A DNA stretch of 64,000 bases from Candidatus Thorarchaeota archaeon. Its GTDB lineage: Archaea > Asgardarchaeota > Thorarchaeia > Thorarchaeales > Thorarchaeaceae. Shown one piece after another: positions 1 through 19,537 of the stretch. The stretch is taken from positions 1,495-65,494 of the forward strand of contig RDOC01000007.1 in NCBI GenBank assembly GCA_011364985.1. The letters run 5' to 3'. Below the pieces are notes generated by a model. That model had not been told where the DNA came from. It saw nothing but the letters and a program-made list of their open reading frames with translations, and made no database searches. A program made the position numbers and the translations under genes. The number at the start of each line of letters is the position of its first letter. Position 1 is the stretch's first letter.

Positions 1-262
1 AAGCCGGGTGCAGGGAAAGCGGAACCACTCCAGTATATCCCCCAACTTCAATGAAAACTACAATCATCAGAAATATCTAGAAGGCCCATTTGACAACCGG
101 ATGATTTCTTTCCTCCACCGCAAATCTCTGATATAGTTCAAAGAGGAGTCTGTTTTAGCTGATTCACGCTACATCTTCAACGCCTCAATATTCACTACTG
201 ATATGGGCAAAAGCACCTTTCTGTTCTTGCACAAACATCCGTGGCATATGCCTTCTAAGGTA

Positions 263-350
263 GAGAGAAGTATTAGGCGGCGGTGAGATGAAGTATTGGG
301 GAAATACCCTTTTCATTTTGCTAAGCATCCTCATTCTGAAGCCAATTACT
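263..350 (+). repeat. Copy A of ~85-nt conserved intergenic element (GAGAGAAGT..CGGCGGTGAGAT..GGGGAAATAC..)
   Basis: Nucleotide-level similarity to 5884-5970 and 7147-7236. Shared blocks GAGA(G)AAGT, CGGyGrTGAGAy, GGGGAAmTA and CATTTy..GCATCCTC-like tail. Lies 3' of the convergent rSAM gene. Confidence 0.55.
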
Positions 351-352
351 GA

Positions 353-1822
353 CTAAAGGCAACTACTTCTCCCATCATTCTTCTCCAATTGCCTTTTCTT
401 GTCATCGTCGAGTTCTCCTCTTGCATAGGACAGCAGTTGCCCCCGCTGCCTCACGTTTCTTATGAAAAGTCCCATTCTATACCTGCTCTTCAAAGTCAGA
501 AGTATCTCTCTTGAGAGGTAACGCTTCCTATAGACGAACTTCTCATATGCATCTGAAATCAATCTTTCCAGTATGCCAGTCTGCACTGAATCAGGATGGA
601 TGTCTGATACGAGGACTCCTGTTTCCCAGTATGCCTCTGGGTCCAAATATCCTTGATTGACAAGCTGATTCCAGATATCAGTCCCGGTGACTGCTCCCAG
701 CATGTTCAGTTGAATGAAGTCAATGTCGAGTTTCATGGAGAAATCAATAGTATTCTTTACTTCTTTCACTGTTTCACCAGGTGCTCCAACAATGAATGTG
801 CCTAGAATGATGTCTACACCTGCCTTACGACACGTTTCTGCCGCCTGTATGCTCATCTGTGGAGTTATTCTCTTGCCATATAAATCAAGGATTCTCTGAT
901 TTGCGCTTTCAAACCCAAGATACATGAGTCTACAACCACTTTTGACCATTGATCTGATCGTATGGCTATCAACCTGGTCCACTCGTCCTTCGCAAAGCCA
1001 ACTGAACTCAAGTTTACGTTCCCTTATTAGGTCACAAATCTTTAGTATGCGCTTCCTGTTCATGGTGAAACAATCATCGACAAAGAAGATGGTCTTGAAG
1101 CCCTCTACTAAGAGGTTCTCAATCTCATCCACTACATTCTCAGGACTTCTAGAACGCCACTTTCTACCTGCAAATAGACTGCAACTACAGAATGTACATG
1201 AAAATGGACAACCCCTAGAAGAAACCATAGACGCCAAATTGGGCCATCGCAGTCCTTCAACCTGCCCATACCACTCAGTCTTGACCAAGTCCATTGCAGG
1301 AGGTGGCAAAGCGTCTAAATCGGTTATGAATCTTCTAGGGGCGCCTCTCTTCACAATCCCATTCTCCCGATGGTAGATACCGCTTACAGCCTTAATATGT
1401 CCCCCGCTCTCTAGTGCTCTAACAAGCTCAATCATGGATAACTCACCTTCGCCCGTTATGGTGGAATCGATTTGGGTGTACTTTTTCATCATACGTTCCA
1501 CGTTGAGTGTGGCATGCACTCCTCCAAACACGATATGAGTATCAGGAAGCCGTTTCCTTATCATGGCGGCCAGCTCTGCTGCCTTTGATGCTTGCCATGT
1601 CATCATTGATAAACCAACTACACCGGGTGAGTACCTCTCTACTCTTTTCAATAACCGTTCGTCTGACAGATGTTCTCCAATTTGATCAATGAGCGTGACT
1701 TCAACTCCAGCTTCGCGCAACGAAGATGCTATATAGAGAAGACCAAGCGGAGGACTGAATGTTGGAGTTGCGAATCTGGAGTTGATATAATCTGGAGCAG
1801 GGAATATGAGACAGACTTTCAC
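353..1822 (-). CDS. B12-binding domain radical SAM protein (class B rSAM, methyltransferase-like)
   Basis: 489 aa. N-terminal MKVCLIFP.. cobalamin-binding-like domain, then a CPFSCTFCSC (CxxxCxxC) radical SAM cluster motif. GTG start at 1822. Confidence 0.85.
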   Translation of the reverse strand: MKVCLIFPAPDYINSRFATPTFSPPLGLLYIASSLREAGVEVTLIDQIGEHLSDERLLKRVERYSPGVVGLSMMTWQASKAAELAAMIRKRLPDTHIVFGGVHATLNVERMMKKYTQIDSTITGEGELSMIELVRALESGGHIKAVSGIYHRENGIVKRGAPRRFITDLDALPPPAMDLVKTEWYGQVEGLRWPNLASMVSSRGCPFSCTFCSCSLFAGRKWRSRSPENVVDEIENLLVEGFKTIFFVDDCFTMNRKRILKICDLIRERKLEFSWLCEGRVDQVDSHTIRSMVKSGCRLMYLGFESANQRILDLYGKRITPQMSIQAAETCRKAGVDIILGTFIVGAPGETVKEVKNTIDFSMKLDIDFIQLNMLGAVTGTDIWNQLVNQGYLDPEAYWETGVLVSDIHPDSVQTGILERLISDAYEKFVYRKRYLSREILLTLKSRYRMGLFIRNVRQRGQLLSYARGELDDDKKRQLEKNDGRSSCL

Positions 1823-1983
1823 TTCCTAGATTCTGCCGCGGTTCAAGATAAACGCATCTATCCCCTGTCTAAGTAGGAGTAAGGGCGGTGGAGAGAGGGT
1901 ATTTGGGGGGCTTATCCTCCTCGTATTGCTGAGATGGTGGATTTCTTTTGTCTATCAGTCTTACAAATCTCGTAATATTATAA

Positions 1984-2040
1984 ATTTAAATAAAAGTATC
2001 AGGTAATATATGATGGAATCAGCATTCGCACGATGAGGTG
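1984..2040 (+). promoter_or_regulatory. AT-rich TATA-like box (TTTAAATAAAAG) and Shine-Dalgarno GAGGTGG upstream of SPASM rSAM gene
   Basis: TTTAAATAAAAG at ~1984-1995. GAGGTG at 2035-2040, 6 nt before the ATG at 2046. Region is divergent with the rSAM gene. Confidence 0.4.
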
Positions 2041-2045
2041 GGAAA

Positions 2046-3200
2046 ATGCTTGTGACTGTCACTCACGACGAAATAAGAAGGCGAATTGGGGAAAGAAACA
2101 GGAATCCCCAACAGCGTCCATATGCAGCTATAATGAAATCTGCTGACACATGTAATAATTCCTGTACCTACTGCTATGTTGAACCACACTCAACGGTTCC
2201 CATAATGACAAAAGAAACAGCTGAGATTGCAATTAGAACGATTCTTGAATATGTTGGTCCTAACAGGCAAGTGAACTTTATCTGGCATGGTGGCGAGCCG
2301 TTGCTAGCAGGATTACCTTTCTTTAAACACATTGCTGATGTGTGCGACGAGTATGTTGAGAACAGAATCGAGAATTCCATTCAGACAAATGGTACTCTCT
2401 TGAATGAGGAATTCTTGGAGTTATGCGTGAATAGACACATTCTGATAAGCCTCAGCATAGACGGACCAAAAGATATCCATGACCTCATGCGGAAAGACAA
2501 AGGAGGTCGCGGAACATTCTACCAGGTAATGGATGCAGTGGCAATGATTCGAAATGTTGGTCTTCCAGTTGGCTGTGTTACCGTACTTCACCAGCAGAAT
2601 CTTCATCACATCGAACGGATGTACAAGTTCTTCAGGGACAATGACATTAACTTCCGAATCAATCCCATAGTGAAATCGGGGCGGGCAACAAGAGCATACA
2701 ACGAGCTATCTATTACACCCAAGGAGTACGGCGAAGCAATGTGCAAGCTTTTTGATCTTTGGTTCGAAGAAGACGGCCCTATTCAAATAGAACCACTCGA
2801 AACAATAGTTGGCAACTTAATAGGACCAACTGTATGGGGTTGCGATTATCATGGAACCTGCCTGTTAAGCATCATTTCGGTCAACCCTGACGGCGGATTA
2901 TATCCGTGCGGAAGGTTTGCTGGTCTGGAGAACTTCAAGTTAGGGGATATCAATATTAATTCGGATTTCGAGGCTATGTTTGAATCCAGTCTTTTCAAGA
3001 GACTTTCATCGAGGAGTCCTTTGACAGTTTCTGGGTGTTCTGATTGCGAGTTTGTTGAAATCTGCAATACCGGATGCATGGTGACAGCTTTCATGGGAAG
3101 AAATAGGATTGAAGATCCTGACTACTACTGTTACGGACGGCGGATGCTGTTTTCGCATATCTTCAATGCTCTAATTGGACATTTGCGAGATGTCCAATAG
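2046..3200 (+). CDS. Radical SAM/SPASM-domain protein (anaerobic sulfatase-maturase-like peptide-modifying enzyme)
   Basis: CNNSCTYCY (Cx3Cx2C), GGEPLL, TNGTLL, SIDGP motifs. C-terminal Cys-rich SPASM region (CDYHGTC.., YPCGRFAG, CSDCEFVEICNTGCM). Confidence 0.85.
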   Translation: MLVTVTHDEIRRRIGERNRNPQQRPYAAIMKSADTCNNSCTYCYVEPHSTVPIMTKETAEIAIRTILEYVGPNRQVNFIWHGGEPLLAGLPFFKHIADVCDEYVENRIENSIQTNGTLLNEEFLELCVNRHILISLSIDGPKDIHDLMRKDKGGRGTFYQVMDAVAMIRNVGLPVGCVTVLHQQNLHHIERMYKFFRDNDINFRINPIVKSGRATRAYNELSITPKEYGEAMCKLFDLWFEEDGPIQIEPLETIVGNLIGPTVWGCDYHGTCLLSIISVNPDGGLYPCGRFAGLENFKLGDININSDFEAMFESSLFKRLSSRSPLTVSGCSDCEFVEICNTGCMVTAFMGRNRIEDPDYYCYGRRMLFSHIFNALIGHLRDVQ

Positions 3201-3228
3201 ACAATGAGTGAATGGATGAGTGAATAAT

Positions 3229-3438
3229 ATGGGAAAAGTGAAGAAAGAGAATATTATTGAAGTACTAGGTGAGAATGTGAAGACCGAAGACCTGAAGTCA
3301 TCAGTACAGAGGATTATTGGCCATAGGCGCTTTAAGGGACCTATCGAGTTCGAGCTACGGCTTTCTGAGGAAGACAAGAAGCGTCATGATCCAACAACTA
3401 GCTATTACAACGTCTACCGGTATGCTTTCTTCGATTGA
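3229..3438 (+). CDS. Small protein (69 aa from ATG) with aromatic-rich C-terminus ..TTSYYNVYRYAFFD; candidate precursor peptide
   Basis: ORF immediately 3' of the SPASM gene on the same strand. Protein-like composition (K/E-rich). The track start at 3220 is GTG; first ATG is at 3229. Confidence 0.35.
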   Translation: MGKVKKENIIEVLGENVKTEDLKSSVQRIIGHRRFKGPIEFELRLSEEDKKRHDPTTSYYNVYRYAFFD

Positions 3439-3607
3439 GCCTAGCGTATGGGATAATGAAACGGATAATCTGAAGAAGGAAACACGAGAAACAGATGCAA
3501 TTATCTGGATTCGTATGCCGAAGAGCTTTCAGATTGATTCAGTGCGAAAGCTTGGTCTTGAGATGGATGTATGCCTTGACGATACCTGTACTTGTGCTCC
3601 TACCTAA
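3422..3607 (+). CDS. Small ORF (62 aa from ATG 3422, or 30 aa from ATG 3515) with Cys-rich C-terminus ..EMDVCLDDTCTCAPT
   Basis: Downstream half of track ORF 3317..3607. Only this part has protein-like composition. Overlaps the previous ORF's last 17 nt in another frame. No clear SD. Confidence 0.2.
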   Translation: MLSSIEPSVWDNETDNLKKETRETDAIIWIRMPKSFQIDSVRKLGLEMDVCLDDTCTCAPT

Positions 3608-3846
3608 ACTAAGGGTACTGGTTTAGTGATATAAAACCCAAAAGGAATCAATCTTAAAGAACTACTGAGAAGAGATGGATTCATGCCAAGGGTGGAGTGC
3701 TTTGGATACACATGCAATGCCTAGGTTGAATCGGATTCAAGGCAAGTGGAAGACTTCGAAGTATACCGACAAGATTGAGCTTAGCTGCTTTCTCTGTCAA
3801 GAGATAGCTCGAAATGGAGGCAGCTGGAGTGGCGGTGCAAAAGGAA

Positions 3847-4200
3847 CTAATTTGACGGATCATATCTGACCTGTGCTAATGAGTTTAGATCATTCAGGTC
3901 TTTTCTGACGCCTCCCATCAGTTCTCTCTCGGTGACTTTGAGTTTTGTCCTATAAGCCGATTCATCTGCAATGGATTGCATGATGAGTACATGAGGTAAA
4001 TCATTATCGGACTCGAAAAGGATTGTCTGATGGTTCTCTTCATTTTCAACGTTTGTACTCGCGATGATACTACCATTCAATTCTCCTATCCTTGTAATTG
4101 GTATAGCAGGTGTCACACACACGTAAGGGAAACTCTGGTCTTGTACATTGTAGTTGAGGAGATTGAACTCCATCATGGTCAAACTGCAACTTATTTCCAC
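3847..4200 (-). CDS. Hypothetical protein (117 aa, GTG start), overlaps 3' end of next gene in another frame
   Basis: ORF-track only. The frame stays open upstream of the GTG. Could be a frame-shifted continuation of 4070..4534 or a spurious call. Confidence 0.15.
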   Translation of the reverse strand: MEISCSLTMMEFNLLNYNVQDQSFPYVCVTPAIPITRIGELNGSIIASTNVENEENHQTILFESDNDLPHVLIMQSIADESAYRTKLKVTERELMGGVRKDLNDLNSLAQVRYDPSN

Positions 4201-4534
4201 ATATATTGCATCTGTAAAGAGCTTCGATTCTGAACTTGATTTCTTGAGATGGACAACTGTACACCTTCACATTGCGCTTTGAACTGCCCAGTTCTCTCAT
4301 ATCTCCAAGGGCTCGCATGGAGTGCAATATAGGATACATTCCAATAAGACTCTCTGTGCAAATGCCTTCTGGAGATCTCCAACTGAATTCAAATTCCTGC
4401 CCCACTCTATGGTTGGCACGACAATTTCCCTCATCGACAACTGTGACTCTAAATGCAACTGCTTCCTCCCAAATATCACGAAGTCTTAGTAGCAGATCCT
4501 TCTCAGATTGATTCCTTGTAGTCATTACTACCAC
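4070..4534 (-). CDS. TIGR04076-like protein with C-terminal CxxC..CxxC zinc ribbon
   Basis: RVTVVDEGNCRANHRVGQEFEF..PEGICTESL..YP..CPSQEIKFRIE matches the remembered TIGR04076 pattern (C..H.G.EF..P.G.C..CP...F.I.R). C-terminal RCNICGN..CDTCY. Confidence 0.5.
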   Translation of the reverse strand: MVVMTTRNQSEKDLLLRLRDIWEEAVAFRVTVVDEGNCRANHRVGQEFEFSWRSPEGICTESLIGMYPILHSMRALGDMRELGSSKRNVKVYSCPSQEIKFRIEALYRCNICGNKLQFDHDGVQSPQLQCTRPEFPLRVCDTCYTNYKDRRIEW

Positions 4535-4882
4535 CCATTACTGCTAGGTAATCATCGATATTATCTCTTCTCTCCTCTCATATCAGAGTATGAGAAGAGA
4601 ATTCTGTCACCTGATTCTGCTAGTATACAATTTCTCATGGTTCAAGGAGTCTACAAGACCGCTTTCTCTTTTATTAGCAACCAAGAAATTGGGAAATGGT
4701 CAAGTCTCTCTTTCTTTATATTCTTGCATAGATGTTTGAGGACGCATTCAATTCATTACAAGGTCATCTTGCTGAGAGCCCCTTTTGTCTTTGAGATTTG
4801 ACCTCAGATTTGATTCAATTGGAAATGCACCATCAGCTGTTCCATCATCCTTTTTAGTAGGATTCTTTCACTCCGCATCGAA

Positions 4883-5866
4883 ATGCTACCCGACCCTGTG
4901 ATTTGGCTTGTTCTCTTTATAGCAAGTTATATTGCAATCTACTCTCTGGCTGATTTCATAATTGATACTTTGGGGGATATTAGCGAATCCTTTTGCATAG
5001 CTCCCATAGTATTGGGACTGCTTCTTCTCGGAATTGACTTGGAAGAAAGCATTGTTTCATTAATCGCAGCAGTTGACGGTCTTGCTTACTTGTCATTGGG
5101 TAATCTCATTGGAAACACAGTGATAGCGATTGGGATTGCATTTGGATTGCCTGCGCTCTATCTCAAGGCAGAGATCGACCAGCTCCCGCGATTCTACTAT
5201 GCTGAGCTAATCGTTGCCGGGATATTTGTCCTGATTTCAATGATTCTAACAGATTATCTGTTTGTCTTTGGCCTTTTGAGCATCATCCTCTTTGCTGCTC
5301 ATCTGGCGTACACATATCGAACACAAAGGGCGTTTCAATCAACAAGGGTGCATACTGTAATAGACACGCCAAAATCTGACTTGGACAGTGAAATAGATGC
5401 CCAAGCGACCAAGCATGATCGTACGTGGGCGGGATCCAAACTGCTGTTGGCACTCCTTGTCGTATTCTTGGCTGCTGAAGTCTTGGTGACCAGTGCCGAG
5501 GAACTTGTTCTTCTAACGGGATTGAATGAATCTTTCTTTGGATTGATTATTATGGCGGCTGTGACAAATGTTGAGGAATTCTGGTTGGTTGTCAAATCAA
5601 TTCAAAAGGGCCATGTTGCATTGGGTGTGAGTGCGCAGGTTGGCAAGATACTCTGGAATACCACCTTGATCTTTGGACTCTGCAGCCTGTTGCTAGTTCA
5701 ATTCAGATTTGAGATAGTAATGTTGCTGAGCTCAATTCTTTCTCTCTTTGCGCTGGTGTTATTGGCAGTGAATCTCTCTCAGAATCGATTGTCAAGGGCA
5801 GCTGGTATTGGCTATACCACAATTCTAGTAGCTTTCCTGATTATGAACTCGTTCTTTGCTTTCTGA
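4883..5866 (+). CDS. Ca2+/Na+ antiporter (CaCA family) membrane protein
   Basis: 327 aa polytopic protein with two alpha-repeat-like segments (GNLIGNTV.. and AAVTNVEEF..) and an acidic loop between the halves. Confidence 0.65.
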   Translation: MLPDPVIWLVLFIASYIAIYSLADFIIDTLGDISESFCIAPIVLGLLLLGIDLEESIVSLIAAVDGLAYLSLGNLIGNTVIAIGIAFGLPALYLKAEIDQLPRFYYAELIVAGIFVLISMILTDYLFVFGLLSIILFAAHLAYTYRTQRAFQSTRVHTVIDTPKSDLDSEIDAQATKHDRTWAGSKLLLALLVVFLAAEVLVTSAEELVLLTGLNESFFGLIIMAAVTNVEEFWLVVKSIQKGHVALGVSAQVGKILWNTTLIFGLCSLLLVQFRFEIVMLLSSILSLFALVLLAVNLSQNRLSRAAGIGYTTILVAFLIMNSFFAF

Positions 5867-5883
5867 CACGCAAACCAAGAAGC

Positions 5884-5970
5884 GAGAGAAGTAGAGACGG
5901 CGGTGAGATAGAGCACTCGGGGAACTAGTCCTCCCACATTTCTGAGCGTCCTCTCATCTTTCATTAGACC
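5884..5970 (+). repeat. Copy B of ~85-nt conserved intergenic element
   Basis: GAGAGAAGTAGAGACGGCGGTGAGATAGAGCACTCGGGGAACTAGTCC.. starts 18 nt after the TGA of the CaCA gene. Aligns to copies A and C. Confidence 0.55.
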
Positions 5971-5991
5971 ATCTCGAATGGCCTGCAATGG

Positions 5992-7140
5992 ATGAAATGG
6001 CTAATCTTTCTAACTAATCGCATTTTCGTTTTATTCACAGTCAGATACTTGGATGAGAAGACTGAAAATAGACCAAGCAGTGACATTGTCATGCCAATTG
6101 AGTTCCATCCTATGGGAGCCAAGGTTCTCATATCACATTTACGAAGAGTGCATGACGGGAGCCCTCTATCGGAGCGGGAGATCAATGATATACTAGAACA
6201 ACCGGATATTTATCTCTGGATTTCAGTCTATGATGAATGGATGAAGGGATCTAAATCCGAATTTAGAGATATTCTTTGTTCATTGCACAAAGATTCCATG
6301 AATGACTTGAGTAAATGGGGACAACATATCAATCAAGGACTGAGAAATTCCCTATCCAGGCTTGACGAGCTTGAGCAAGCATTGAACCATCTGACGCGCT
6401 ATGACTGGGGGCTGGCTGCATCAAACACCCTTCAATTCCTCCCCAAAGACACCCCCCTTAATGCTCACGTAATAATGACAATTGATGGCTTTAATGGAGG
6501 TATGTTCCATGATGACAATATGTTTCTCTCTCTAACGATCATAGGTCCGGATACCATGAGCCCTCAGTATTTCACACATGAATTTCATCATATTGGATTG
6601 GGATATTGGTGGGAACGGAACCCTGTCGTCAAGAAATTTGGGCAAGAAAAGGCCTCACGAGAGGCTTGGTTGTTGCGTTTGTACCATTATATGGTCAGTG
6701 AAGGCCTTGCTAACGCATTCTGTTCTCCAGCCATGTTGAGCCAAACTGAACATGACGATGAACAAAATCGAAAACACAACAAGATCATCAGAGAATACGA
6801 CTCACAATTCAATGAGATCTTGTATTCGCTGGAAACCATCCTTGAACAGATTATTGGGCATAGCAATCCCGAAATAACCGAACAATATGAGGAGTTCTCA
6901 CTTGACATGAAAACCCACTACTTGCCCAAGGGCCATTTTCTTTCAGGTAGGATGATTCAAATAATGGATGAATCACCAGCAGTTTCACGTGAAGAAATCA
7001 TCGATCTTGTGAGGGAGCCATTCAGATTCTTTCAATTATACAACCGGGCTGCAAGAGATCGGGGGCATAGGGAAGTTTCCAGGCCTCTTCTTGATTCAGT
7101 CGAAGGAGCAATTCGTTCCATGAAGAAGAACGTCAATTAA
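5992..7140 (+). CDS. Hypothetical protein with HExxH motif (putative zinc metallopeptidase-like)
   Basis: HEFHHIG motif, then a downstream EGLANAF segment. True start may be the ATG at ~6091 (MPIEFHP..). Confidence 0.4.
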   Translation: MKWLIFLTNRIFVLFTVRYLDEKTENRPSSDIVMPIEFHPMGAKVLISHLRRVHDGSPLSEREINDILEQPDIYLWISVYDEWMKGSKSEFRDILCSLHKDSMNDLSKWGQHINQGLRNSLSRLDELEQALNHLTRYDWGLAASNTLQFLPKDTPLNAHVIMTIDGFNGGMFHDDNMFLSLTIIGPDTMSPQYFTHEFHHIGLGYWWERNPVVKKFGQEKASREAWLLRLYHYMVSEGLANAFCSPAMLSQTEHDDEQNRKHNKIIREYDSQFNEILYSLETILEQIIGHSNPEITEQYEEFSLDMKTHYLPKGHFLSGRMIQIMDESPAVSREEIIDLVREPFRFFQLYNRAARDRGHREVSRPLLDSVEGAIRSMKKNVN

Positions 7141-7146
7141 ATGGGT

Positions 7147-7236
7147 GCTGAGAAGTGGAGCTGTCGATGAGACGGAGTGCTGGGGAAATACGTTTCTCAT
7201 ATTGCAGAGCACCCATTTCCCTTTTCGGTAGCTGGG
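7147..7236 (+). repeat. Copy C of ~85-nt conserved intergenic element
   Basis: GAGAAGTGGAGCTGTCGATGAGACGGAGTGCTGGGGAAATACG.. starts 7 nt after the TAA at 7140. Contains the GTGCT..AGCAC and GGGAAAT..ATTTCCC inverted repeats. Confidence 0.55.
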
Positions 7237-7430
7237 CAGATTCCCCATGAATGAATCGTATATGAAAGAAGTTCCCACTAGATACTTTGGAAAGGAGCTT
7301 CAATGCCTCATCATATTTCTGCTTCTTGCAATCTTCATAGGTATTTTCCTCTGAATTTCGATGTTGATGGCTCGAGCACCACAATAGTATTCCTGTTCAC
7401 CCGGAGGGAAGACGGATCTCTTCTGCCTTG

Positions 7431-9074
7431 CTAGTTGTCTATTCTGGAGATCTTCAGTGCTCCGGCAAGAAGGACCAAGGGTCCGACAACCAAAATGGGT
7501 GCGATGGCAACGAGCATTCCAAGAATGACATTCTTGAAGAAGATGTCAGTTCTAAATTCGATTACAAAACCGAGTATAATTGCAAACAGGGATATAACTA
7601 GTGTAGCAATGGTATTTGTGTGGAATGCTGAGCTCTTTATGTCTTCGTATGCTGGGTTCATGGCTGTGAGCCCAATTCCAATGAGTATTGTGTTGCATAG
7701 AACGAGATATGCATGTAATACCATAATACCGCCATCAACAATGGGCAGCGAGAGGACCATAGCAAGAATGAGAGCAGGACTTATTGCCATCGGGATTGCA
7801 AAGAAGAACGCACCAATGATTCTGGCTGCTAAGAATCTTGATATTCCTCGGGGTGCACACTTGATAATCCAAAGATGATCCTTTGATTCCAGGAAACCAA
7901 CTCCCCCAAATGTTACTCCTCCTGTAATTCCAAGTATCATACCAACGAAAAATGATGTGTACATGAGTATCTGAATTGGGTCCTGAATGCTCGTGAGACC
8001 TGAGTAGCTTCCCATAACCGGCACTATAATTGACAGAGATGTGCCATAGATTATTTTCGAAGTGTTCTGCGCCTTTCTGCCAAAGTCTTTCAGCATCGTG
8101 ACAATAAGGGCTCCGAGAGAACCCGGCGCGGCCCGCCTGATTGCACGAAGAACTAAATTCTCTTCTCCTACCGTGGTGACTGTTTCTGTTCGAACTCCTG
8201 CCTCAAAGCTGAAAATCCTATCTGGAGTCACTACTCCAAGAATCAAGACCACCGCGGCAAAAAGGCCGATCAAAACGAGGTCTGACTCAATCCCAAGTTC
8301 AAGAATCCCCTCAAAAACAGTAACAGCCTCAGATGGCAGATTTACTCCATTGAAATAGATGGTTATCCACGTAATTGAATCTGCTGCCCATGTAGATGGC
8401 AACAACAGGAAGCCATTGAGTCCCAATAGCTGAGCAAACGTTTCTGCGAAGTACAAGAGGCCATAGAGGGGTAATAAGAATACAAGTACAATAATGATGC
8501 CCATTGCTTTTGCAATATCATTTCCACGTGGAGAATCTCCAAGTCTTGCCTGAATTGCAGTACTGATGACGGTTGAGAGTAAGAGCGTGGTCAGAACAAA
8601 GACTGCAATGATCACGTAGGCAGTTATTTGTCCAAGGATGGATACTTCATAGAAGATAATGAATGGTGAAATCAAAAGGGGCGCCATAAAGAGGACGAGC
8701 AGGCTGTAAGATGGAATCTTTGCTAGGAATATCCCGAATAGCATGTCACGGGTTCTTACGTTGTTGCTTAGTATAATCTCCCACTGACCTATTCTTACCT
8801 CTTGCAGAGAATAGGAGATCGGATAAATCAGCACCATAGTCCATAAGATAAGAATGACAGCTCTCATTACTCCGGGATAGGTCGCTTGCAGGACTTGTTG
8901 AATTTGGGTTGAGAATAAGTCTAGAAATCCACTCATTATCCGAGGTGCTATGAAGAAAGCCCATGCTAGCCCAATTATGAATAATAGTAGCAAAACATGC
9001 AATCTTTTCTTTCTGAACCTCGCGGTTGTGACACGGAACTCAGTTTTCGCAATAATAGCCCAAGCCCTTACCAT
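7431..9074 (-). CDS. Large polytopic membrane protein (possibly ABC-2-like permease, two membrane halves separated by a soluble loop)
   Basis: 547 aa, many hydrophobic segments, central soluble region. No adjacent ATPase. Confidence 0.45.
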   Translation of the reverse strand: MVRAWAIIAKTEFRVTTARFRKKRLHVLLLLFIIGLAWAFFIAPRIMSGFLDLFSTQIQQVLQATYPGVMRAVILILWTMVLIYPISYSLQEVRIGQWEIILSNNVRTRDMLFGIFLAKIPSYSLLVLFMAPLLISPFIIFYEVSILGQITAYVIIAVFVLTTLLLSTVISTAIQARLGDSPRGNDIAKAMGIIIVLVFLLPLYGLLYFAETFAQLLGLNGFLLLPSTWAADSITWITIYFNGVNLPSEAVTVFEGILELGIESDLVLIGLFAAVVLILGVVTPDRIFSFEAGVRTETVTTVGEENLVLRAIRRAAPGSLGALIVTMLKDFGRKAQNTSKIIYGTSLSIIVPVMGSYSGLTSIQDPIQILMYTSFFVGMILGITGGVTFGGVGFLESKDHLWIIKCAPRGISRFLAARIIGAFFFAIPMAISPALILAMVLSLPIVDGGIMVLHAYLVLCNTILIGIGLTAMNPAYEDIKSSAFHTNTIATLVISLFAIILGFVIEFRTDIFFKNVILGMLVAIAPILVVGPLVLLAGALKISRIDN

Positions 9075-9413
9075 ACACTTCCCTCCGTTGTAGGGAGCTC
9101 AATTCCACAATCTTTCCGCATGTTCCTCACTCAAGCCTAAATCAGAATTCTGTTCACTGCCAGCCATTTACTGCATGCATTTCAGGTATGCTGCTAATGG
9201 ACTTTTCTTTTCTATGAAACTCAGTAGACTTTTCATATCCTGCACGTTTGCCATCGAATCCCAATATTTGTAATGGACGTATACGAAGATCGAGCTCCTA
9301 CGCAGTCACAACATAGATGCCTGTATTCAAAGCTCAAATGAATAAGGAGCATTCCTACTACGAGTACCGATTTGAATAGTTTCCCTTAAATTGACGATGC
9401 CATCCTTACCAGA

Positions 9414-10415
9414 ATGGTCTTATTATTCATGACAGCGATAATCGATGGGGTCGTGCGAATCGAGATACCCACTCCATTTCCGGTAGGCAGTGTTAATTGC
9501 TATCTAATAGAAGGCACTCCACTCACTCTGATTGACACTGGTCCGAGAACCTCCCGCAGTCTAGCAACGATAACACAAGAGATGAGAAACATCCAATATG
9601 ATTTGTCAGATATTGAACAAATACTCCTGACGCACAACCATATTGACCACATTGGGCTTACAGCAGAATTTGTGAGAGAACGCAAACGAGTTCATGACGA
9701 TTCATCAATGGTATGGATTCATCAAAGTGATGCTGACGCATTGGTCGATTATGATCGCTACATGGAACTTTATGCCAAGTCAATTACTCAGCTCATTGCA
9801 GCATGTGGTATCCCCACGGACGAGGTACCAATAGTCATGCTAGAAGATTACATTGAGCACTTCAAGTCCTTTGGGGAGCCGGTTCTGACAGCTCAAGGCT
9901 TCGAGGATGGAACCTCTTTCAAAACAGGCATCGGCGAACTCACTGCTCTTTGGGTTCCAGGTCACTCACCAGGTTCAACATGCTTCGTTTGTGATGAGAA
10001 ACAGGTTGTCTTTAGTGGAGATCACATCTTGGGAGATATCAGTTCAAACCCAAGCATATCGTTTGACAGCTCTGAAAGGATAGGCATGATAACCTACCTC
10101 GAGTCTTTGAGCCGCATATCATCGAAAGAGAACTATATTGCGTTGCCCGGACATAGAGAACCGATTTTTGACATAGAATCGAGAGTCGAAACACTGCGCG
10201 CTGAATATGATAGTAAACTCCAGAAGGCTGCTGATGCACTTACATCTACTCCTCAGACAATCTATAGAATATCAAGGGCTGTCTATGGAGAATATGATGC
10301 GAATTCACTTGCCCTAGCCTTGGCTGAGAGTCGTGATCTGCTTAGTATCCTTGAGAGCAGAAATCAGGCCGAGTTGATTAATCAGAATGGGCTTGTCTAC
10401 GCGGTGAAACATTGA
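9414..10415 (+). CDS. MBL-fold metallo-hydrolase
   Basis: THNHIDHIG (HxHxDH) motif, plus downstream His and Asp residues typical of the beta-lactamase fold. Confidence 0.8.
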   Translation: MVLLFMTAIIDGVVRIEIPTPFPVGSVNCYLIEGTPLTLIDTGPRTSRSLATITQEMRNIQYDLSDIEQILLTHNHIDHIGLTAEFVRERKRVHDDSSMVWIHQSDADALVDYDRYMELYAKSITQLIAACGIPTDEVPIVMLEDYIEHFKSFGEPVLTAQGFEDGTSFKTGIGELTALWVPGHSPGSTCFVCDEKQVVFSGDHILGDISSNPSISFDSSERIGMITYLESLSRISSKENYIALPGHREPIFDIESRVETLRAEYDSKLQKAADALTSTPQTIYRISRAVYGEYDANSLALALAESRDLLSILESRNQAELINQNGLVYAVKH

Positions 10416-10456
10416 CGATTGAGATGTCCCAAGAACTCCCAATTGTGATCAACACC

Positions 10457-11296
10457 TCATTCTTGGATTTGATTGCTTTCTTGCTGAATCAGCTCGCATA
10501 CAATTTTCCAGAAGACAGGAGGATTCTCAGTATGAAGTCCATGTCCAGCTTCAGGTATGAAGAGAAGTGGAAGATTTGCCTTTCTTACAAGAGATTCAGA
10601 GGAAAACACTCCTTTGTTCTTCTCTCCGAAGATGAAATACATTGAGATACCTTGATGCGCTAGCAGTCTGCCGAGAAGGTCACCTTTCATAGAAATCGGA
10701 GCCAAACTCTTGGACGATGCCCATATGGTGAATGGTCCCGCTTTGCGAAACGCTGTCACGAAATTGAGCATGGGCTCTTCCTTGGAATCGCCAAGTATCT
10801 TATCACACCAAGAATCGAATTGGCCTTCAAATTCCGAGAATGTCATCTTCGCAATTTGTGATGAAAAGAAGGCATCGCCAGCGTCAAGATTTCCTTCTAG
10901 ATAGAACAATAGACTGGGTCTGGCTTTCAGCGTTTCCTGATGAGCCAGAAGTTCAATCAAGGAAGCTGCAATTGCTCCTCCCATGGAATGGGCTAGAATG
11001 GAGAGGCGCTTTATGTCTTCCTTCTCTAATATAGCTGCTAAGTAGTCTGCTTGCTGGTCCATAGTATATGCCTCAGCTTCATCACTCTTCGTTGAGTCCC
11101 CATGACCCAACAGGTCTGGAACAATCCACGAGAATCTGTCCAAGGCATAGGTGCTGAAGTGCTTTGGGAACCACTTGCGATTGTCTCCCAATCCATGAAC
11201 ATAGAGATTGACCATTGTCTGGTCCGGGTTTCGATAAACATGGTATACTATAGTCCCGTTGTCTGTTACCAAACGCTTTGTTTCTAAGGCGGCCAT
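10457..11296 (-). CDS. Alpha/beta hydrolase fold protein
   Basis: HGLGDN oxyanion region and GxSxG nucleophile elbow (AHSMGG). Confidence 0.75.
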   Translation of the reverse strand: MAALETKRLVTDNGTIVYHVYRNPDQTMVNLYVHGLGDNRKWFPKHFSTYALDRFSWIVPDLLGHGDSTKSDEAEAYTMDQQADYLAAILEKEDIKRLSILAHSMGGAIAASLIELLAHQETLKARPSLLFYLEGNLDAGDAFFSSQIAKMTFSEFEGQFDSWCDKILGDSKEEPMLNFVTAFRKAGPFTIWASSKSLAPISMKGDLLGRLLAHQGISMYFIFGEKNKGVFSSESLVRKANLPLLFIPEAGHGLHTENPPVFWKIVCELIQQESNQIQE

Positions 11297-11453
11297 TGTC
11301 TAGGTCACAGTCCTTTTCCCAGTAGTTCTTTTCCTTTGCTCATGTGGTCAGCAATCCCTATTATCTTTCTCTTTGATTGTATCTTGGGTTCATTGCACAC
11401 TCACGATTGGTTTCAAGCCAATGGCTAACCAAAGCGCTCGAAGGTCTTGCATC

Positions 11454-12215
11454 CTAGAACTCATGCCTACGGAATCGCCAGATTGCAAGCAACATTAGTA
11501 CAGCTAGCACAAGCAGTGATGTGACCACTGGGGTGATTGAATAGATGTCTTCTCCGACCAAGCTAAGCGATACTTGTAAAAGGCCCCAAGGGCCGAATTG
11601 ACCAAGATCTGGATGTTGACCAAGGTTGATTCCTATGAAGATGAATAGAAACGGTACAGCCATGACCGGACCTGGATCATCAAAGAACGTTCCCGCACAC
11701 AGTGTCAAAAAAACGAGGAACATCTGCCAGAGTGCCATTGGCACCAGAGAGAGAAGATAAATCAGGAAATTCGGTGGGAGGCCAAGTAGAAGGGTTTCTA
11801 GGTAGACAGCGAGCCCCGGAAACAATACCATTGAGAACGAAACACCCAGAGAAAGCCCCAAGAACTTAGGGATTATGAATGCCTCTCTCGATACTGGTTT
11901 TGAGAGTACCCATGCCGCGGATCCCGACCGTTTCTCCTCAAGAATCGTTTCATGCGAGATGATTATGGTGGCAATTGATGGAAAAATCGTAGCCATCATA
12001 TAGAATATGGCCAGACCTGTGTCTGGATCAGAGATTCCCACAGAGCCAAACATTCCCAGTATAAGGCTCCATAGTAGGCCTTGCTGCCACCAGAACGGAG
12101 AACCAAACCATGCCTTTAGTTCCTTCTTCATCAGAACAGTGAATCCCATTCTCCATCCTCTCTCTGTGGTTGGCTCGAATGAATCTTTAGCAATCATTGC
12201 TATGGTCCTCCACAA
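11454..12215 (-). CDS. ABC-2 family transporter permease
   Basis: 253 aa polytopic. Immediately downstream of the ABC ATPase, overlapping it by 29 nt. Confidence 0.6.
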   Translation of the reverse strand: MWRTIAMIAKDSFEPTTERGWRMGFTVLMKKELKAWFGSPFWWQQGLLWSLILGMFGSVGISDPDTGLAIFYMMATIFPSIATIIISHETILEEKRSGSAAWVLSKPVSREAFIIPKFLGLSLGVSFSMVLFPGLAVYLETLLLGLPPNFLIYLLSLVPMALWQMFLVFLTLCAGTFFDDPGPVMAVPFLFIFIGINLGQHPDLGQFGPWGLLQVSLSLVGEDIYSITPVVTSLLVLAVLMLLAIWRFRRHEF

Positions 12216-13149
12216 GTTTCATGAAAATTTCTTCAAGCTCATACTGCTTGAGACCAAAGTCAAGAACATCAACCTCTTCATCGGCTAGCACCGTTCTGAG
12301 AAGTTGTTTTCTTGCCATAGAGTCATCATTGACGTCTACGACCCAATGAGTTCGGTTTCGTTCTTCTCTCTCCGAGATGCCCGTGACCCATGGTTCAGCT
12401 GAAAGTTTCTTGTAAGCCTCTTGAGTATCGCCCTCAAGTACGAGGATATAGGCCATTCCTTCGCTTCCCGCAAGGAGTTCTTCAATAGGGGCCTGAGCAA
12501 TTAGGTTACCCTTGTTCAAAATCGCCACTCTGTCACTCACTCGCTGTACATCGTCAAGGATGTGGGTGCTGTAGAATATGGTCGATTCCGACCGAAGGGA
12601 TTCCATTATCTTCAGCACTTTCTCTCGTCCTTCGGGGTCTAGTCCTGCAGCTGGCTCATCCAGAATCAGCAACTCGGGAAAATTGATCTGTGCCTGCGCA
12701 ATCCCCAACCGTTGCATCTCGCCGCCGGAAAATCCTTCGATTGGTCGGTCTGCCTTGTCCTCCAAGTCAACGATTCGCAGGAGATGCTCAATTCTTTCCT
12801 CAATCTTGTCCTCCGGTCCTTTAAAGAATAGGCGCGCAGCGAACCTCATGGTTTCACGGGCACTCAGCTCCTTGTAGAATCTGGGATGTTGCGCAAGATA
12901 TCCAATCCTTCTTCTGACCTCATCATTGTCACCAATCACACTTCGACCAAGGACGTTTGCACCACCGGCTGTAGGATGTGTGAGACCGAGCAGAAGTTTG
13001 ATGGTCGTTGTCTTCCCAGCTCCATTTGGCCCTAAGAAGGCGAAAATCGAATTCTTGGGAACCTTGAGATTCAGCTGGTTCAGTGCAAGTACATCACCAT
13101 ATCTCTTGGTTAAGTTGTCTGTTTCAATGACATACGCTTGGGAATGCAT
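12187..13149 (-). CDS. ABC transporter ATP-binding protein (with ~90 aa C-terminal extension)
   Basis: Walker A GPNGAGKTT, signature LSGGEMQRLGIAQA, Walker B LILDEP. Start probably M18 (MHSQAYVIE..); the track ORF extends to 13200. Confidence 0.9.
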   Translation of the reverse strand: MHSQAYVIETDNLTKRYGDVLALNQLNLKVPKNSIFAFLGPNGAGKTTTIKLLLGLTHPTAGGANVLGRSVIGDNDEVRRRIGYLAQHPRFYKELSARETMRFAARLFFKGPEDKIEERIEHLLRIVDLEDKADRPIEGFSGGEMQRLGIAQAQINFPELLILDEPAAGLDPEGREKVLKIMESLRSESTIFYSTHILDDVQRVSDRVAILNKGNLIAQAPIEELLAGSEGMAYILVLEGDTQEAYKKLSAEPWVTGISEREERNRTHWVVDVNDDSMARKQLLRTVLADEEVDVLDFGLKQYELEEIFMKLVEDHSNDC

Positions 13150-13460
13150 TGTCCGTTCTCCTAGTCTTCTATTGAGTTGGTCATCGACTCCATCACACAA
13201 TATAAATCAGCTGAGCAAGGATGAAGATATCAAGGCCCAGCCCCGTCAGATTATCCATGCAATTATTGCATCTTTACTCAAATCATGGGGCTTTGTAATT
13301 CATATGAGGAGTATAATAGGTGCTTTGTATGGAAGAAGAATTAAGTGGCGCCATTTATAGCATGAATTGATTATACATACTGCATTTTGAGCATCCCTTT
13401 GATGTAACAGCAAATGAATGGAAACTAACAGGTGCTGAGTTAGTCCGTTCAATCAGGCTG

Positions 13461-13649
13461 ATGATATCTACTGAATGTGAAGCGATTCGGTTCTATATGC
13501 AACCTGCAGAATCAACAGACAGCAAACTGGCAAAAGAGGTATTGGTTGACATTGCTGACAAAGAGCGAGTTCACGCTGGTGAATTTCTGAAACTTCTTTA
13601 TCATCTTGATCCGGAAGAGGAGAACTTCTACAAGGAATGGAAAAAGTAG
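13461..13649 (+). CDS. Small ferritin-like / rubrerythrin half-domain protein
   Basis: 62 aa. N-terminal E..FY and an ExxH (ERVH) motif, consistent with a half diiron-binding site. Confidence 0.35.
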   Translation: MISTECEAIRFYMQPAESTDSKLAKEVLVDIADKERVHAGEFLKLLYHLDPEEENFYKEWKK

Positions 13650-13749
13650 AAAAAATAATGGGACGAATTGGCATTAAGTAGACTCCACAATGGCGTGCTT
13701 AATCTTGGAAATGGAGTCCATTAGCTGAAAGCGATGACAATCCGCCTTT

Positions 13750-14439
13750 TCAGGGGTAGCCATATGGCCCATAAGGCATGAGTTCGAGTAGTCCTGGCGG
13801 GCTGACAGTTCCAAACAAAGACCATCCAATGACTAGTGTGAAACCGAACAATACTAAGGGGATGAGTGCCCTATTCCATGATAGACCATACAGATAATGA
13901 GCGGTTGCACTGAATTGTAGGAACCCTGTCCATAGGAGTCCTATGGCTGCTGAAAAGGGCAAAAACCCGAAGAGAAGCGAAGGCAGGTCTCCATAACATA
14001 CTCCTGCTACAGCATGTCCATACTGGCCCTGTCCACCAAGTACATACTTGTACGCCATGTGTAGGAAGAGCGCAAAGAAGAGCGCAGTGACAATTGTGTC
14101 AAGATACACTACTGGAATACACAGGAGCCAAGAGATTACGATGCTTCCCGTGTAGGAATAGAACAACGGGTACCAATCCTTGTGAATGGACAGAAATACT
14201 TGATTTCCATAATGAAAATCCAGTATAGGAGTGGCACAGATTCCCAGAATCCAATCGTTAAGGGCAATCCAGATTGGAATGGTCGCGGAATAAATGACTA
14301 GGAATGTTGCTAGAAATAGAACTGGGCGTCTAGTAAATCTACCAGTCAGCTCATCCTCCTGTTGAGACACAAGACTCTGGAAGAATCCCGTAGGATTCAA
14401 GACAATTGCTTTAGCATCTGACATAGCAGTATTTGGCAT
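13750..14439 (-). CDS. Hypothetical polytopic membrane protein
   Basis: 229 aa, multiple hydrophobic helices. Confidence 0.45.
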   Translation of the reverse strand: MPNTAMSDAKAIVLNPTGFFQSLVSQQEDELTGRFTRRPVLFLATFLVIYSATIPIWIALNDWILGICATPILDFHYGNQVFLSIHKDWYPLFYSYTGSIVISWLLCIPVVYLDTIVTALFFALFLHMAYKYVLGGQGQYGHAVAGVCYGDLPSLLFGFLPFSAAIGLLWTGFLQFSATAHYLYGLSWNRALIPLVLFGFTLVIGWSLFGTVSPPGLLELMPYGPYGYP

Positions 14440-14520
14440 ATTAATTCACCTATTTTGCAATATCTTGCAAATTGCGCCGTAGCGCAAAAGTAAATATGAT
14501 TATCGTTCATAGCAAACAAC

Positions 14521-15000
14521 ATGCCTTCTGAACCAGAGAAGAAGTTGCAAACAATCCTAGCGAATATTGCTGCAGCCCGAGGTTTCAACGCAGTTGAAGG
14601 TTCGATACTAGGAACATTGCTGTTGCATTCTCAACCAAGAACTCAACGCGACATTGCAGCAGCAGTCGGGCGCAGCCAATCCACAATCTCAAGAGCCCTA
14701 CGTCGTCTCATTGATAGAGGAGTTATTGAATGGAGGCGAAAACCCGGGTCGAGAGAGATGCTCTTCTCACTCGTGAGCGAAAGCCCAAAGGGACTAATCC
14801 TATCAGGACTGCTAAAATGGCTAAATACGAATTCAGTCCTCAGAGATGTTCTGGAGGCACTCATTGATGAAATGCCTGCTGGATCGGACACCAAGGTGGA
14901 ATCTGTGGCAAGAGATCTGATTGGCACAATCGACTATGTTGGTCAAGTTCTAAAACCAGCACTCAACACCTTGAAGCTCGCGCAATCGCTTTCGGAATGA
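14521..15000 (+). CDS. MarR-like winged-helix transcriptional regulator
   Basis: TQRDIAAAVGRSQSTISRALRRLIDRGVIEW matches the helix-turn-helix plus wing pattern. Confidence 0.6.
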   Translation: MPSEPEKKLQTILANIAAARGFNAVEGSILGTLLLHSQPRTQRDIAAAVGRSQSTISRALRRLIDRGVIEWRRKPGSREMLFSLVSESPKGLILSGLLKWLNTNSVLRDVLEALIDEMPAGSDTKVESVARDLIGTIDYVGQVLKPALNTLKLAQSLSE

Positions 15001-15047
15001 AAAGATGTCCGGATAGCTCTGTTTTCCTTTCACCTTGATTTCATCGT

Positions 15048-15608
15048 CTATTCAAGTGCTTCTATAGCCTCTTCGGTTGTTAACAGAGTGGTGCCGTGTA
15101 CGCTCCTCATATGTTCTAGGGCAAAGAGATGGTTCTCTTCAGATGTGCTTGCTGTTGCATCTGTAATTACAATTACATTGTAGCCCCTTGCAGATGCGTC
15201 TGCTGATGTGTACATGACACAGATGTCAGTGAGCACACCGACAAGAATCATAGTTACGATGCCTTTCTCTCTGAGGCGGAGGTCCAAGTCAGTTCCAAAG
15301 AAGCCTGAGTACCTTCTCTTTGGGATGACCTCACTACTCTGTTCTGGCTTTAACTCATCAACAATCTCCGATCCCCAAGTGCCTACTACTGCATGTGCCG
15401 GCCATTTTCCGAACTCGTCATCATCTGGCTCATGGTTGTCCGCGAGATACATCACTCTCAATCCCAAGTGACGAGCCATCTCAAGCAGTCTGGACTGATT
15501 GAACAGTAAGTCCGTTGCCTTAGGTACCACCAATCTCCCCTTCTCTCTCACAAAGTCATTCAACATATCCACTACAATGATGGCGGTCTTCTTAGGGTCC
15601 AGCTTCAC
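15048..15608 (-). CDS. pncA: Isochorismatase-family cysteine hydrolase, probable nicotinamidase
   Basis: TAIIVVDMLNDF start and a conserved Cys (DICV). Adjacent to, and with no gap from, the NAPRTase gene. Confidence 0.7.
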   Translation of the reverse strand: MKLDPKKTAIIVVDMLNDFVREKGRLVVPKATDLLFNQSRLLEMARHLGLRVMYLADNHEPDDDEFGKWPAHAVVGTWGSEIVDELKPEQSSEVIPKRRYSGFFGTDLDLRLREKGIVTMILVGVLTDICVMYTSADASARGYNVIVITDATASTSEENHLFALEHMRSVHGTTLLTTEEAIEALE

Positions 15609-16808: not shown

Positions 16809-16910
16809 TGTCCTTCCTCGTTTTCCACTCTTTCAGGCACGCTGTTAACTATATTGAATGTTCTTTATAAGATATGGGAATACACAAAGGCATCAAAGCA
16901 GATCTCAAGA

Positions 16911-17906: not shown

Positions 17907-18158
17907 CTCTTTACTTATAGCAACATATCATACTACATTCGACGGCATGTTGAGATTCTATCAATAAAATTGAGCACGAGTCAAGTACTAAGATTCCACT
18001 GACTTAACTGCCCAGCCATTGACAGGCTCTCTTTGATAAACCCAATCTTATCAGAACGCTGAAGACCTCCAGACACCATCATTTGCATCGAATACAAATA
18101 TATGGAATACAAACAGAATCTTTTTTCACGAATTTTCGTTCAAAACTGGAACGGTATC

Positions 18159-19481: not shown

Positions 19482-19537
19482 GTTTCTGGTCTTCCTAATT
19501 CTCTTTTATTGAGATTCAGCAGTCAATGATTTTGAGG

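Follow-up and report, generated by a model that had tools for sequence, protein, structure and literature searches.

What would a radical S-adenosylmethionine (radical SAM)/SPASM enzyme encoded in an Asgard archaeal contig modify, and is its substrate the small open reading frame (ORF) that directly follows it? The question is raised by a window of 64,000 nucleotides (the whole stretch of DNA analyzed here: contig RDOC01000007.1 of assembly GCA_011364985.1, positions 1,495 to 65,494 of the forward strand, from Candidatus Thorarchaeota archaeon), in which an initial annotation had placed a 69-aa ORF with an aromatic-rich tail after the SPASM gene and proposed it as the enzyme's substrate. We report here that the ORF belongs to a strictly linked gene pair, and we consider it likely, on the strength of homology and conservation patterns, that the two genes encode a maturase and a precursor peptide whose core is cross-linked at its aromatic residues. 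The elements in question are the following.

2046..3200, plus strand: radical SAM/SPASM peptide maturase, 384 aa, with the Pfam Radical_SAM and SPASM domains above their cut-offs
3214..3223, plus strand: purine-rich, putatively Shine-Dalgarno-like stretch GGATGAGTGA, ending 5 nt 5' of the precursor ATG
3229..3438, plus strand: putative precursor peptide gene, 69 aa plus stop, member of a peptide family without earlier annotation
3229..3393, plus strand: predicted leader, residues 1-55, with the motif ..[IV]xVLGxxVxxxxLKxxhxxhhxxR.. in alignments
3403..3432, plus strand: core Y59-Y60-N61-V62-Y63-R64-Y65-A66-F67-F68, predicted site of modification
3433-3435, plus strand: D69, a variable extra residue

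The 69-codon ORF (MGKVKKENIIEVLGENVKTEDLKSSVQRIIGHRRFKGPIEFELRLSEEDKKRHDPTTSYYNVYRYAFFD) runs from an ATG at 3229 to a TGA at 3436-3438, and its last 14 residues (TTSYYNVYRYAFFD) hold four Tyr and two Phe, in full agreement with the initial annotation. The spacing that had been read into this tail (YYN, VYR, YAF) was wrong, the conserved register being Y59-x-N61, Y63-[KR]-Y65 and Y65-[AS]-F67, and the noted absence of Cys holds both for the window peptide and for most members of the family described below, including 16/16 cluster representatives, which counts against sactipeptide or ranthipeptide chemistry. The stop codon of the radical SAM/SPASM gene and the start of the ORF are separated by 28 nt, and because this distance is so short the two genes are probably co-transcribed. 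No terminator-like sites were found between them or just 3' of the pair, and a scan for sigma-70 promoters and terminators gave counts at the level of shuffled sequence, the bacterial consensus being uninformative for an archaeal host. An alternative in-frame GTG at 3220 would extend the peptide by three residues; the homologues nevertheless align from the ATG at 3229. The cassette has a G+C content of 42-45%, the same as that of the surrounding DNA. Among the long ORFs of the window, 14-residue segments with at least six Phe, Tyr or Trp make up 0.11% of the total, and the evidence that decides that the ORF is real is its conservation rather than the chance rarity of its tail.

Queried with the 69-aa peptide alone, a word-index search of proteins returned just that peptide, and homologues were recovered through the ORFs that lie downstream of radical SAM homologues, from which a profile was then built. 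In each of the first four contigs with a radical SAM homologue, the radical SAM stop codon is followed within a few bases by a 63-70-codon ORF, with the C-termini ...PPPYYNVYRYAFFE, ...SDYGNIYKYAFF and ...GGYANVYKYAFF in three of them and, after a frameshift in a long-read assembly, ...DYANVYKYAFF in the fourth. A profile search of 5.8 billion proteins yielded 16 cluster representatives, each at E <= 4e-13, and an exhaustive hidden Markov model search of 1.84 billion representatives gave 20 matches at E <= 0.001. The family, whose members we refer to as YAFF peptides, counts more than 30 peptides, all of them unannotated: no names, Pfam domains or NCBIfam matches accompany the retrieved members, and no curated model for the peptide was found in NCBIfam (even at E up to 10) or in Pfam. 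A Cas2 match at E = 0.043 in one of the 16 members was taken as chance. Relatives of the peptide were found neither in plasmids nor in IMG/VR viral contigs. Full-text literature searches for the core motif strings returned nothing relevant, large published triceptide networks possibly including the family, and literature searches combining Asgard, radical SAM and RiPPs (peptides that are ribosomally synthesized and then modified post-translationally) found no description of the YAFF family.

Conservation across homologous loci had been set beforehand as the test of the ORF, and the outcome is clear, as the ORF is present in every related locus with a ratio of nonsynonymous to synonymous substitution rates (dN/dS) of about 0.08 (Nei-Gojobori method; two pairs with unsaturated dS). 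Moreover, every invariant core residue is encoded by both of its synonymous codons across the family, and A66 by all four Ala codons. The low dN/dS and the synonymous variation at the core place the selection on the protein rather than on the DNA, and the 69-aa ORF is confirmed as a real gene under strong purifying selection. Homologues devoid of the aromatic tail had been named in advance as the finding that would speak against the proposal; what the alignments contain is the opposite, the aromatic core being the most conserved part of the family.

The association of enzyme and peptide was recovered in both search directions. With N[VI]Y[KR]YAFF as the sole search motif, a metagenome scan yielded 13 loci that were confirmed, some of them cut by contig ends, and in 13/13 a radical SAM homologue ends 10-150 nt upstream on the same strand; in the reverse test, a YAFF peptide is encoded directly downstream of 8/8 radical SAM homologues at 43-59% identity. 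Protein searches return many radical SAM homologues at 50-59% identity, a scan of genome contigs with the window's enzyme only a 27%-identical enzyme from Parcubacteria, and the matches in plasmids and phages, at about 30% identity, are ordinary anaerobic sulfatase-maturating enzymes (anSMEs). In an all-against-all comparison of neighboring ORFs at loci ranging from 34 to 63% in G+C content, only the radical SAM enzyme and the peptide are common to the loci, and since no other gene is conserved between them, the two form a two-gene cassette. A neighbor-joining tree of the enzymes sorts them by the tail type of the associated peptide: C-terminal YAFF with or without one further residue (the window's type), YAFF-DC[LV]G, YAFF-G with a follower of about 30 aa, and a non-YAFF archaeal outgroup. 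This correspondence between tail type and enzyme clade, as expected for a maturase-substrate pair, indicates co-diversification of enzyme and peptide.

The cassette also recurs in varied genomic surroundings. In the complete genome of Blastochloris viridis (AP014854.2, record 2393323-2399504, locus L028 of our set) it occupies positions 2501..3962 of the locus in a prophage region, where it lies on the opposite strand between the capsid/prohead-protease and portal/terminase genes, a moron-like position in a culturable host. The pair is annotated there as a 'putative arylsulfatase regulatory protein' and a 101-aa ORF of no assigned function containing ...DYYNIYRYAFFGFQAPEDV..., and no close relative of this cassette was found in phage collections. 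Genes for IS200/IS605 Y1 transposases flank the cassette in locus L003 (4355..7201), whose peptide gene is frameshifted in the assembly and called as an intact 63-aa gene on a Logan contig, and in locus L024 (5559..7099) the cassette adjoins phage-like HNH, DUF1064 and DUF2958 genes. The cassette appears to be mobile, which would explain its presence in an Asgard metagenome-assembled genome (MAG).

The enzyme is a radical SAM/SPASM protein by every domain criterion, scoring 77.8 bits against PF04055 Radical_SAM (cut-off 29.5) and 23.2 bits against PF13186 SPASM (cut-off 21.5). It carries a CX3CX2C motif (C36, C40, C43) and eight SPASM Cys residues (C266, C272, C288, C331, C334, C340, C344, C362), and all 11/11 are invariant across 71 homologues. 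The latter eight align one-to-one with Cys 255, 261, 276, 317, 320, 326, 330 and 348 of the sulfatase-maturating enzyme anSMEcpe, and we take them to be the ligands of two auxiliary [4Fe-4S] clusters. An N-terminal RiPP recognition element (RRE) domain is absent. The top NCBIfam match is the dynobactin maturase model NF041298, at 286.8 bits over model positions 3-352 of 356 (cut-off 450), and the same model is matched by 11/11 enzymes tested, with the lowest E-value of all families (best 1.1e-93). The anSME model TIGR03942 comes second at 246.8 bits (cut-off 349.45). Scores against the other cyclophane-synthase models are 186.1 bits for YhhB (cut-off 445), 133.2 for GrrM/OscB (310), 115.1 for FxsB (370), 113.0 for AmcB (425) and 90.0 for XyeB (450), against 125.1 bits for the DarE model NF038005 (650) and 78 bits for the mycofactocin radical SAM model (265); a methanogen peptide-modifying family, PapB and a further cyclophane synthase, DarW, are also among the matches.

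An AlphaFold2 model of the enzyme (mean predicted local distance difference test, pLDDT, 93.9) has anSMEcpe and the triceptide synthase ChlB as its nearest solved folds, at TM-scores of 0.80-0.85, and as both stand at about 0.8, the predicted fold alone cannot decide between an anSME and a cyclophane synthase. The residues aligned with Asp277 and Tyr24 of anSMEcpe are, in this family, an invariant Gly289 and an invariant Val45. The two anSMEcpe residues were reportedly put forward as catalytic-base candidates by Goldman and colleagues in 2013, and a literature search on the role of anSME D277 found nothing. Overall resemblance to anSMEs has a precedent among cross-linking enzymes, DarE being closest to anSME in overall sequence and yet forming cyclophanes (PMC10288494).

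In the peptide, the N-terminal 55 residues had been described at the outset as leader-like, and structure prediction and conservation together support this part behaving as a leader. The AlphaFold2 model of this segment features beta strands at residues 9-12 and 15-18, which would form a hairpin, followed by a helix at residues 19-32 (pLDDT about 75), residues 57-69 with the core tail are modeled as disordered, and the leader motif persists in DPANN-type relatives where the cores differ. The linker between leader and core is of variable length and rich in Asp, Glu, Pro and Gly, reading RHDPTTS in the window peptide. Peptide genes also adjoin more distant radical SAM genes (39-42% enzyme identity; L026 4160..4360, L027 2207..2497, L029 3597..3800), and their products combine a related leader (..V.G..V.....I.NP.L...L) with a different aromatic or charged core, such as FLFKYWDHF... 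or a Tyr/Lys/Asp/His-rich tail. By name, L027 is from Woesearchaeota and L029 from Aenigmatarchaeota, L026 adjoins an archaeal-type Hef helicase-nuclease gene, and L027 has its peptide gene upstream of the enzyme gene. The shared leader sequence suggests that a larger, leader-defined peptide superfamily may exist.

The core is near-invariant throughout the family, with the consensus Y-x-N-[VI]-Y-[KR]-Y-A-F-F. Across the 16 representatives, M1, V17, L22, R33, E42, Y59, N61, Y63, Y65, F67 and F68 are invariant, and variation within the core is confined to positions 60 (Y/A/G), 62 (V/I), 64 (K/R) and 66 (A/S). Invariance thus alternates along the core, residues 59, 61, 63, 65 and 67 being fixed and those between them free, a pattern expected for aromatic-to-C-beta cross-links from position i to i+2. 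Several members have a Pro directly before the first Tyr (DDPPP followed by YYN), and a single Cys occurs only in the YAFF-DC[LV]G subtype. In a further subtype (L017, L021, L022, L024, L025 and L028; enzymes 40-48% identical), YAFF is followed by Gly and then by some 30 aa of follower sequence, in which a separate motif, K[VI]PEVx[LI]DPRA[KR], is conserved; these peptides have an internal core, which implies a second cleavage or a different end product.

The initial proposal that the tail is the substrate of a cyclophane-type SPASM enzyme is supported by the linkage in both search directions and by a best curated match that is cyclophane-forming. In the following model, three things are inferred: the cross-links, in their type and position, the cleavage of the leader, and any biological activity. 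The beta-hairpin and helix of the leader would dock on the RRE-less radical SAM/SPASM enzyme as the ChlA leader does on ChlB, where the solved complex has such an RRE-less fold binding the leader directly. SAM would be reductively cleaved, and the resulting 5'-deoxyadenosyl radical would abstract the C-beta hydrogen of N61, Y65 and possibly F67, after which the carbon radical would attack the aromatic ring two positions upstream, so that each step would lose 2 Da and close a ring of three residues. A first ring would join Tyr59 to the C-beta of Asn61 (of the triceptide or dynobactin ring-1 type), a second would join Tyr63 to the C-beta of Tyr65 (of the daropeptide or dynobactin ring-2 type, through a C-C or C-O bond), and a possible third, from Tyr65 to the C-beta of Phe67, would, as in darobactin, be fused to the second ring. 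Finally, a protease encoded elsewhere would cut the acidic, Pro-rich linker and release a rigid, beta-strand-like peptide of 10-11 residues, whose near-invariance could reflect a conserved target, as for darobactin and BamA, or a cofactor or signaling role.

Several observations weigh against this model. The chemistry is read from homology and motif logic only. Every NCBIfam score of the enzyme falls below its curated cut-off. Among solved structures, anSMEcpe ranks first by sequence and has a fold score about equal to that of ChlB. Some members (P0148, P0152, P0153 and L023) have no Y-x-N motif, which makes ring 1 not universal; they still keep YKYAFF, so that of the predicted rings it is the second system that is universal. 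In the follower and DC[LV]G subtypes the C-terminus is evidently not required to be free, and the model does not explain how these subtypes are processed. No exporter, immunity gene or protease was found conserved with the cassette in the neighbor-ORF comparison, and the source records label both proteins 'MAG: ... [Candidatus Thorarchaeota archaeon]', so that the archaeal assignment comes from the record name only. Finally, core conservation exceeds leader conservation, which is unusual for antibiotic RiPPs and would fit a cofactor or signal equally well. The same gene pair would then make an intracellular peptide-derived cofactor or signal in the manner of pyrroloquinoline quinone (PQQ), mycofactocin or streptide, an explanation that we regard as rather unlikely. 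Near-invariance of the core across enzymes only 40% identical, and across loci so different in G+C content, is indeed the pattern known for PqqA and MftA, and the missing exporter, immunity gene and protease point the same way; on the other hand, neither a partner dehydrogenase nor any other gene for biosynthesis is conserved, PQQ and mycofactocin systems being multi-gene operons, and the mobile contexts (the prophage head module of B. viridis, the IS200/IS605 genes of L003 and the phage-like genes of L024) fit an accessory or competitive trait better. Darobactin cores are likewise highly conserved. That the enzyme acts on the peptide through a different radical SAM chemistry (epimerization, beta-hydroxylation, a C-methylation-like reaction, Tyr side-chain cleavage or, in the Cys subtype, thioether formation) we hold to be unlikely. 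SPASM enzymes span many reactions, this one stays under the cut-off of every curated cyclophane family, and the DC[LV]G subtype does offer a Cys; against this, cyclophane formation is what the best-scoring families catalyze, the alternation of invariant aromatic and acceptor residues agrees with cross-link motifs, the core resembles that of dynobactin, and most members, the window peptide included, contain no Cys. Two further explanations separate the enzyme from the 69-aa peptide, one of them in favor of another ORF of the window.

3386..3607, plus strand: overlapping ORF of 73 codons with a Cys/Thr-rich tail DVCLDDTCTCAPT, called as a gene on a Logan contig

It is very improbable that the radical SAM protein is an anSME or another protein-modifying enzyme beside an unrelated or spurious small ORF. 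In favor of such an enzyme stand the second-best NCBIfam match, the top sequence match among solved structures and the name given to the B. viridis homologue. The anSME score is nevertheless under its cut-off, Gly289 and Val45 occupy the positions of Asp277 and Tyr24 (reportedly the catalytic-base candidates), and the C/S-x-P-x-R sulfatase motif occurs in no ORF of at least 250 aa in the window. The small ORF is moreover strictly syntenic and under purifying selection, and DarE shows that an anSME-like sequence can go with a different chemistry (PMC10288494). As for the overlapping ORF, its gene call and its three C-terminal Cys residues beside Thr and Asp would suit a true archaeal substrate leading to a thioether product of the sactipeptide or ranthipeptide kind, a scenario to which we assign next to no probability. 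It lies in another frame over the part of the 69-aa gene that encodes the conserved core, tblastn found a counterpart in 0/27 other loci (L001, the window's own contig, excluded), and none is present in the ORF lists of L004 and L006; with its counterpart absent from the other loci checked, it was rejected as a part of the cassette. We retain as likely the reading of the 69-aa peptide as the aromatic cross-linked substrate of the adjacent enzyme.

Further features of the window lie outside the cassette.

353..1822, minus strand: B12-binding radical SAM protein, 489 aa, divergent from the cassette
4070..4534, minus strand: TIGR04076-family protein (40 bits, cut-off 33) with a C-terminal extension containing CxxC pairs
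5992..7140, plus strand: DUF5700 putative zinc peptidase, 2.5 kb downstream of the precursor gene
21202..22695, minus strand: PALP-domain (pyridoxal phosphate-dependent) enzyme (222.7 bits) with a C-terminal PadR-like regulator domain, from a domain search

The B12-binding radical SAM protein, the TIGR04076 protein, a Na/Ca exchanger and the DUF5700 peptidase were considered as cassette parts and set aside, as none has a homologue in the other loci. The best NCBIfam matches of the B12-binding protein are BchE, HpnJ and the RiPP enzyme ApyD, all below cut-offs, and it may be unrelated or act as a tailoring enzyme specific to Thorarchaeota. One or two extra radical SAM genes also lie beside the cassette in some other loci (L018 1879..2913, L021 6580..8019, L023 1..2154), and these have no homology to the B12-binding protein at E <= 0.01. 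Different peptidase genes are found within 3 kb of the cassette in three loci, the one in the window being DUF5700, that in L004 an S53 sedolisin and that in L025 an Asp-protease/PDZ gene. No tRNA genes, and no Rfam families at the gathering threshold, were detected in the whole window (1..64000).

Beyond the annotation of a single locus, the YAFF cassette brings together an unannotated peptide family, an enzyme nearest to the dynobactin maturase and a core with the dynobactin layout, in sources that include soil, peat and sediment bacteria, the culturable phototroph B. viridis and an Asgard MAG. Natural peptide scaffolds that hit BamA are, to our knowledge, limited to darobactin, dynobactin and the xenorceptides, all of them from a narrow set of Enterobacterales. 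It is conceivable, though rather unlikely, that the YxNVY(K/R)YAFF peptides constitute a third natural BamA-targeting 'bamabactin' scaffold, acting as Tyr-based, dynobactin-like beta-strand mimics of the outer-membrane-protein beta-signal and carried on a mobile cassette that has entered both a Thorarchaeota genome and a B. viridis prophage. If so, a weapon specific to diderm bacteria would be produced by an archaeon that itself has no outer membrane. On this reading the cassette might also form a fused bicycle, Tyr-to-Tyr or Tyr-to-Phe, of a kind that radical SAM RiPPs have yet to show. With two genes and a 10-residue core, the system is easily testable by co-expression. Cross-linking as predicted would contribute a new lead scaffold and a ring chemistry built on Tyr only, and would place the cassette among the few RiPP cassettes that hint at archaeal-bacterial antagonism; should the prediction fail, the cassette would still offer enzymology a clean new pair of radical SAM enzyme and substrate.

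How the cassette relates to known systems can be read from both of its components. With anSMEcpe (PDB 4K36-4K39) the enzyme shares the fold and all eight auxiliary-cluster Cys residues, and differs from it at the positions of Asp277 and Tyr24, which are not kept, as well as in having a small dedicated peptide partner and no sulfatase motif in the window. Sactipeptides and ranthipeptides use Cys donors in the core, and these are lacking in 16/16 representatives. The PQQ and mycofactocin systems combine conserved accessory genes (PqqBCD, or MftB and MftD-F) with a matching precursor motif (E-x3-Y, or a C-terminal GVY), and the cassette differs from them in that its loci share the radical SAM enzyme and the peptide only.

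Closer relationships are found among the cyclophane-type RiPPs. The defining feature of triceptides is a cross-link from an aromatic residue to a C-beta within aromatic1-X2-X3 motifs (PMC11499958), and a motif of this kind beside a radical SAM/SPASM gene is what the YAFF loci contain, Y59-x-N61 being present in 16/16 representatives and the radical SAM gene adjacent in every locus. The triceptide enzymes XncB, OscB, MscB, YxdB, YhhB, HaaB, ChlB and MicB are likewise RRE-less radical SAM/SPASM proteins encoded beside their precursors, and the model of the window's enzyme superimposes on the ChlB structure at a TM-score of 0.80. Links from Tyr C3 to a C-beta are known from YxdB, YhhB, ChlB (YDR) and MicB (YSK), and Asn serves as cross-link acceptor for XncB and OscB and in dynobactin. 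Triceptide cleavage sites with a Pro directly before the first motif have been described (PMC12912966), and some YAFF members have a Pro at this position. The differences lie in the YhhB, XyeB, GrrM/OscB and FxsB scores, all far below their cut-offs, in a single and almost invariant core as opposed to repeated or variable ones, in the gene order of enzyme then precursor, and in the aromatic-x-aromatic elements of the core (Y-K-Y, Y-A-F), which are typical of daropeptides.

Daropeptides are in turn defined by aromatic1-X2-aromatic3 motifs, and their enzymes share a common origin with those of triceptides (PMC12912966). The YAFF core contains two such motifs, Y63-[KR]-Y65 and Y65-[AS]-F67, and resembles the darobactin system (DarA/DarE) in its possible fused bicycle, like that over W1-N-W3-S-K5, in its placement close to the C-terminal end of a precursor about 60 aa long, and in the related class of its enzyme. 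It departs from that system in the DarE score (125 bits versus 650), in the absence of both the N-terminal extension of DarE and any Trp in the core, and in having no darBCD-type transporter linked to the cassette.

The closest counterpart is dynobactin, from Photorhabdus australis, in which the peptide dynobactin A, WNSNVHSYRF, carries one ring from Trp1 to the C-beta of Asn4 and another from His6 to the C-beta of Tyr8. The two cores align without gaps over N-V-[H/Y]-x-Y-x-F, and the aligned positions are the ring positions of dynobactin: a ring onto an Asn C-beta, a Val, an aromatic-x-Tyr ring and an x-Phe near the C-terminus, a pattern whose chance of occurring in one 14-residue tail is about 7e-6 by post-hoc estimate. 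The enzymes correspond as well, with the NF041298 match spanning the whole model and the RRE-less architecture in common. At 287 bits, below the cut-off of 450, the window's enzyme is nevertheless not an equivalog, and the putative donors are all Tyr here versus Trp and His, ring 1 would span three residues versus four, and YAFF peptides end in an additional Phe, which Asp may follow, or continue into a follower. The YAFF leader has no curated peptide model, the precursors being compared by core only, and YAFF peptides are encoded in environmental bacteria, in B. viridis and in a Thorarchaeota MAG. Overall, the YAFF cassette is filed as a new precursor/enzyme family of radical SAM/SPASM cyclophane-type RiPPs, with a putative first ring of the triceptide kind, a putative second ring of the daropeptide kind, and the layout of the two shared with dynobactin.

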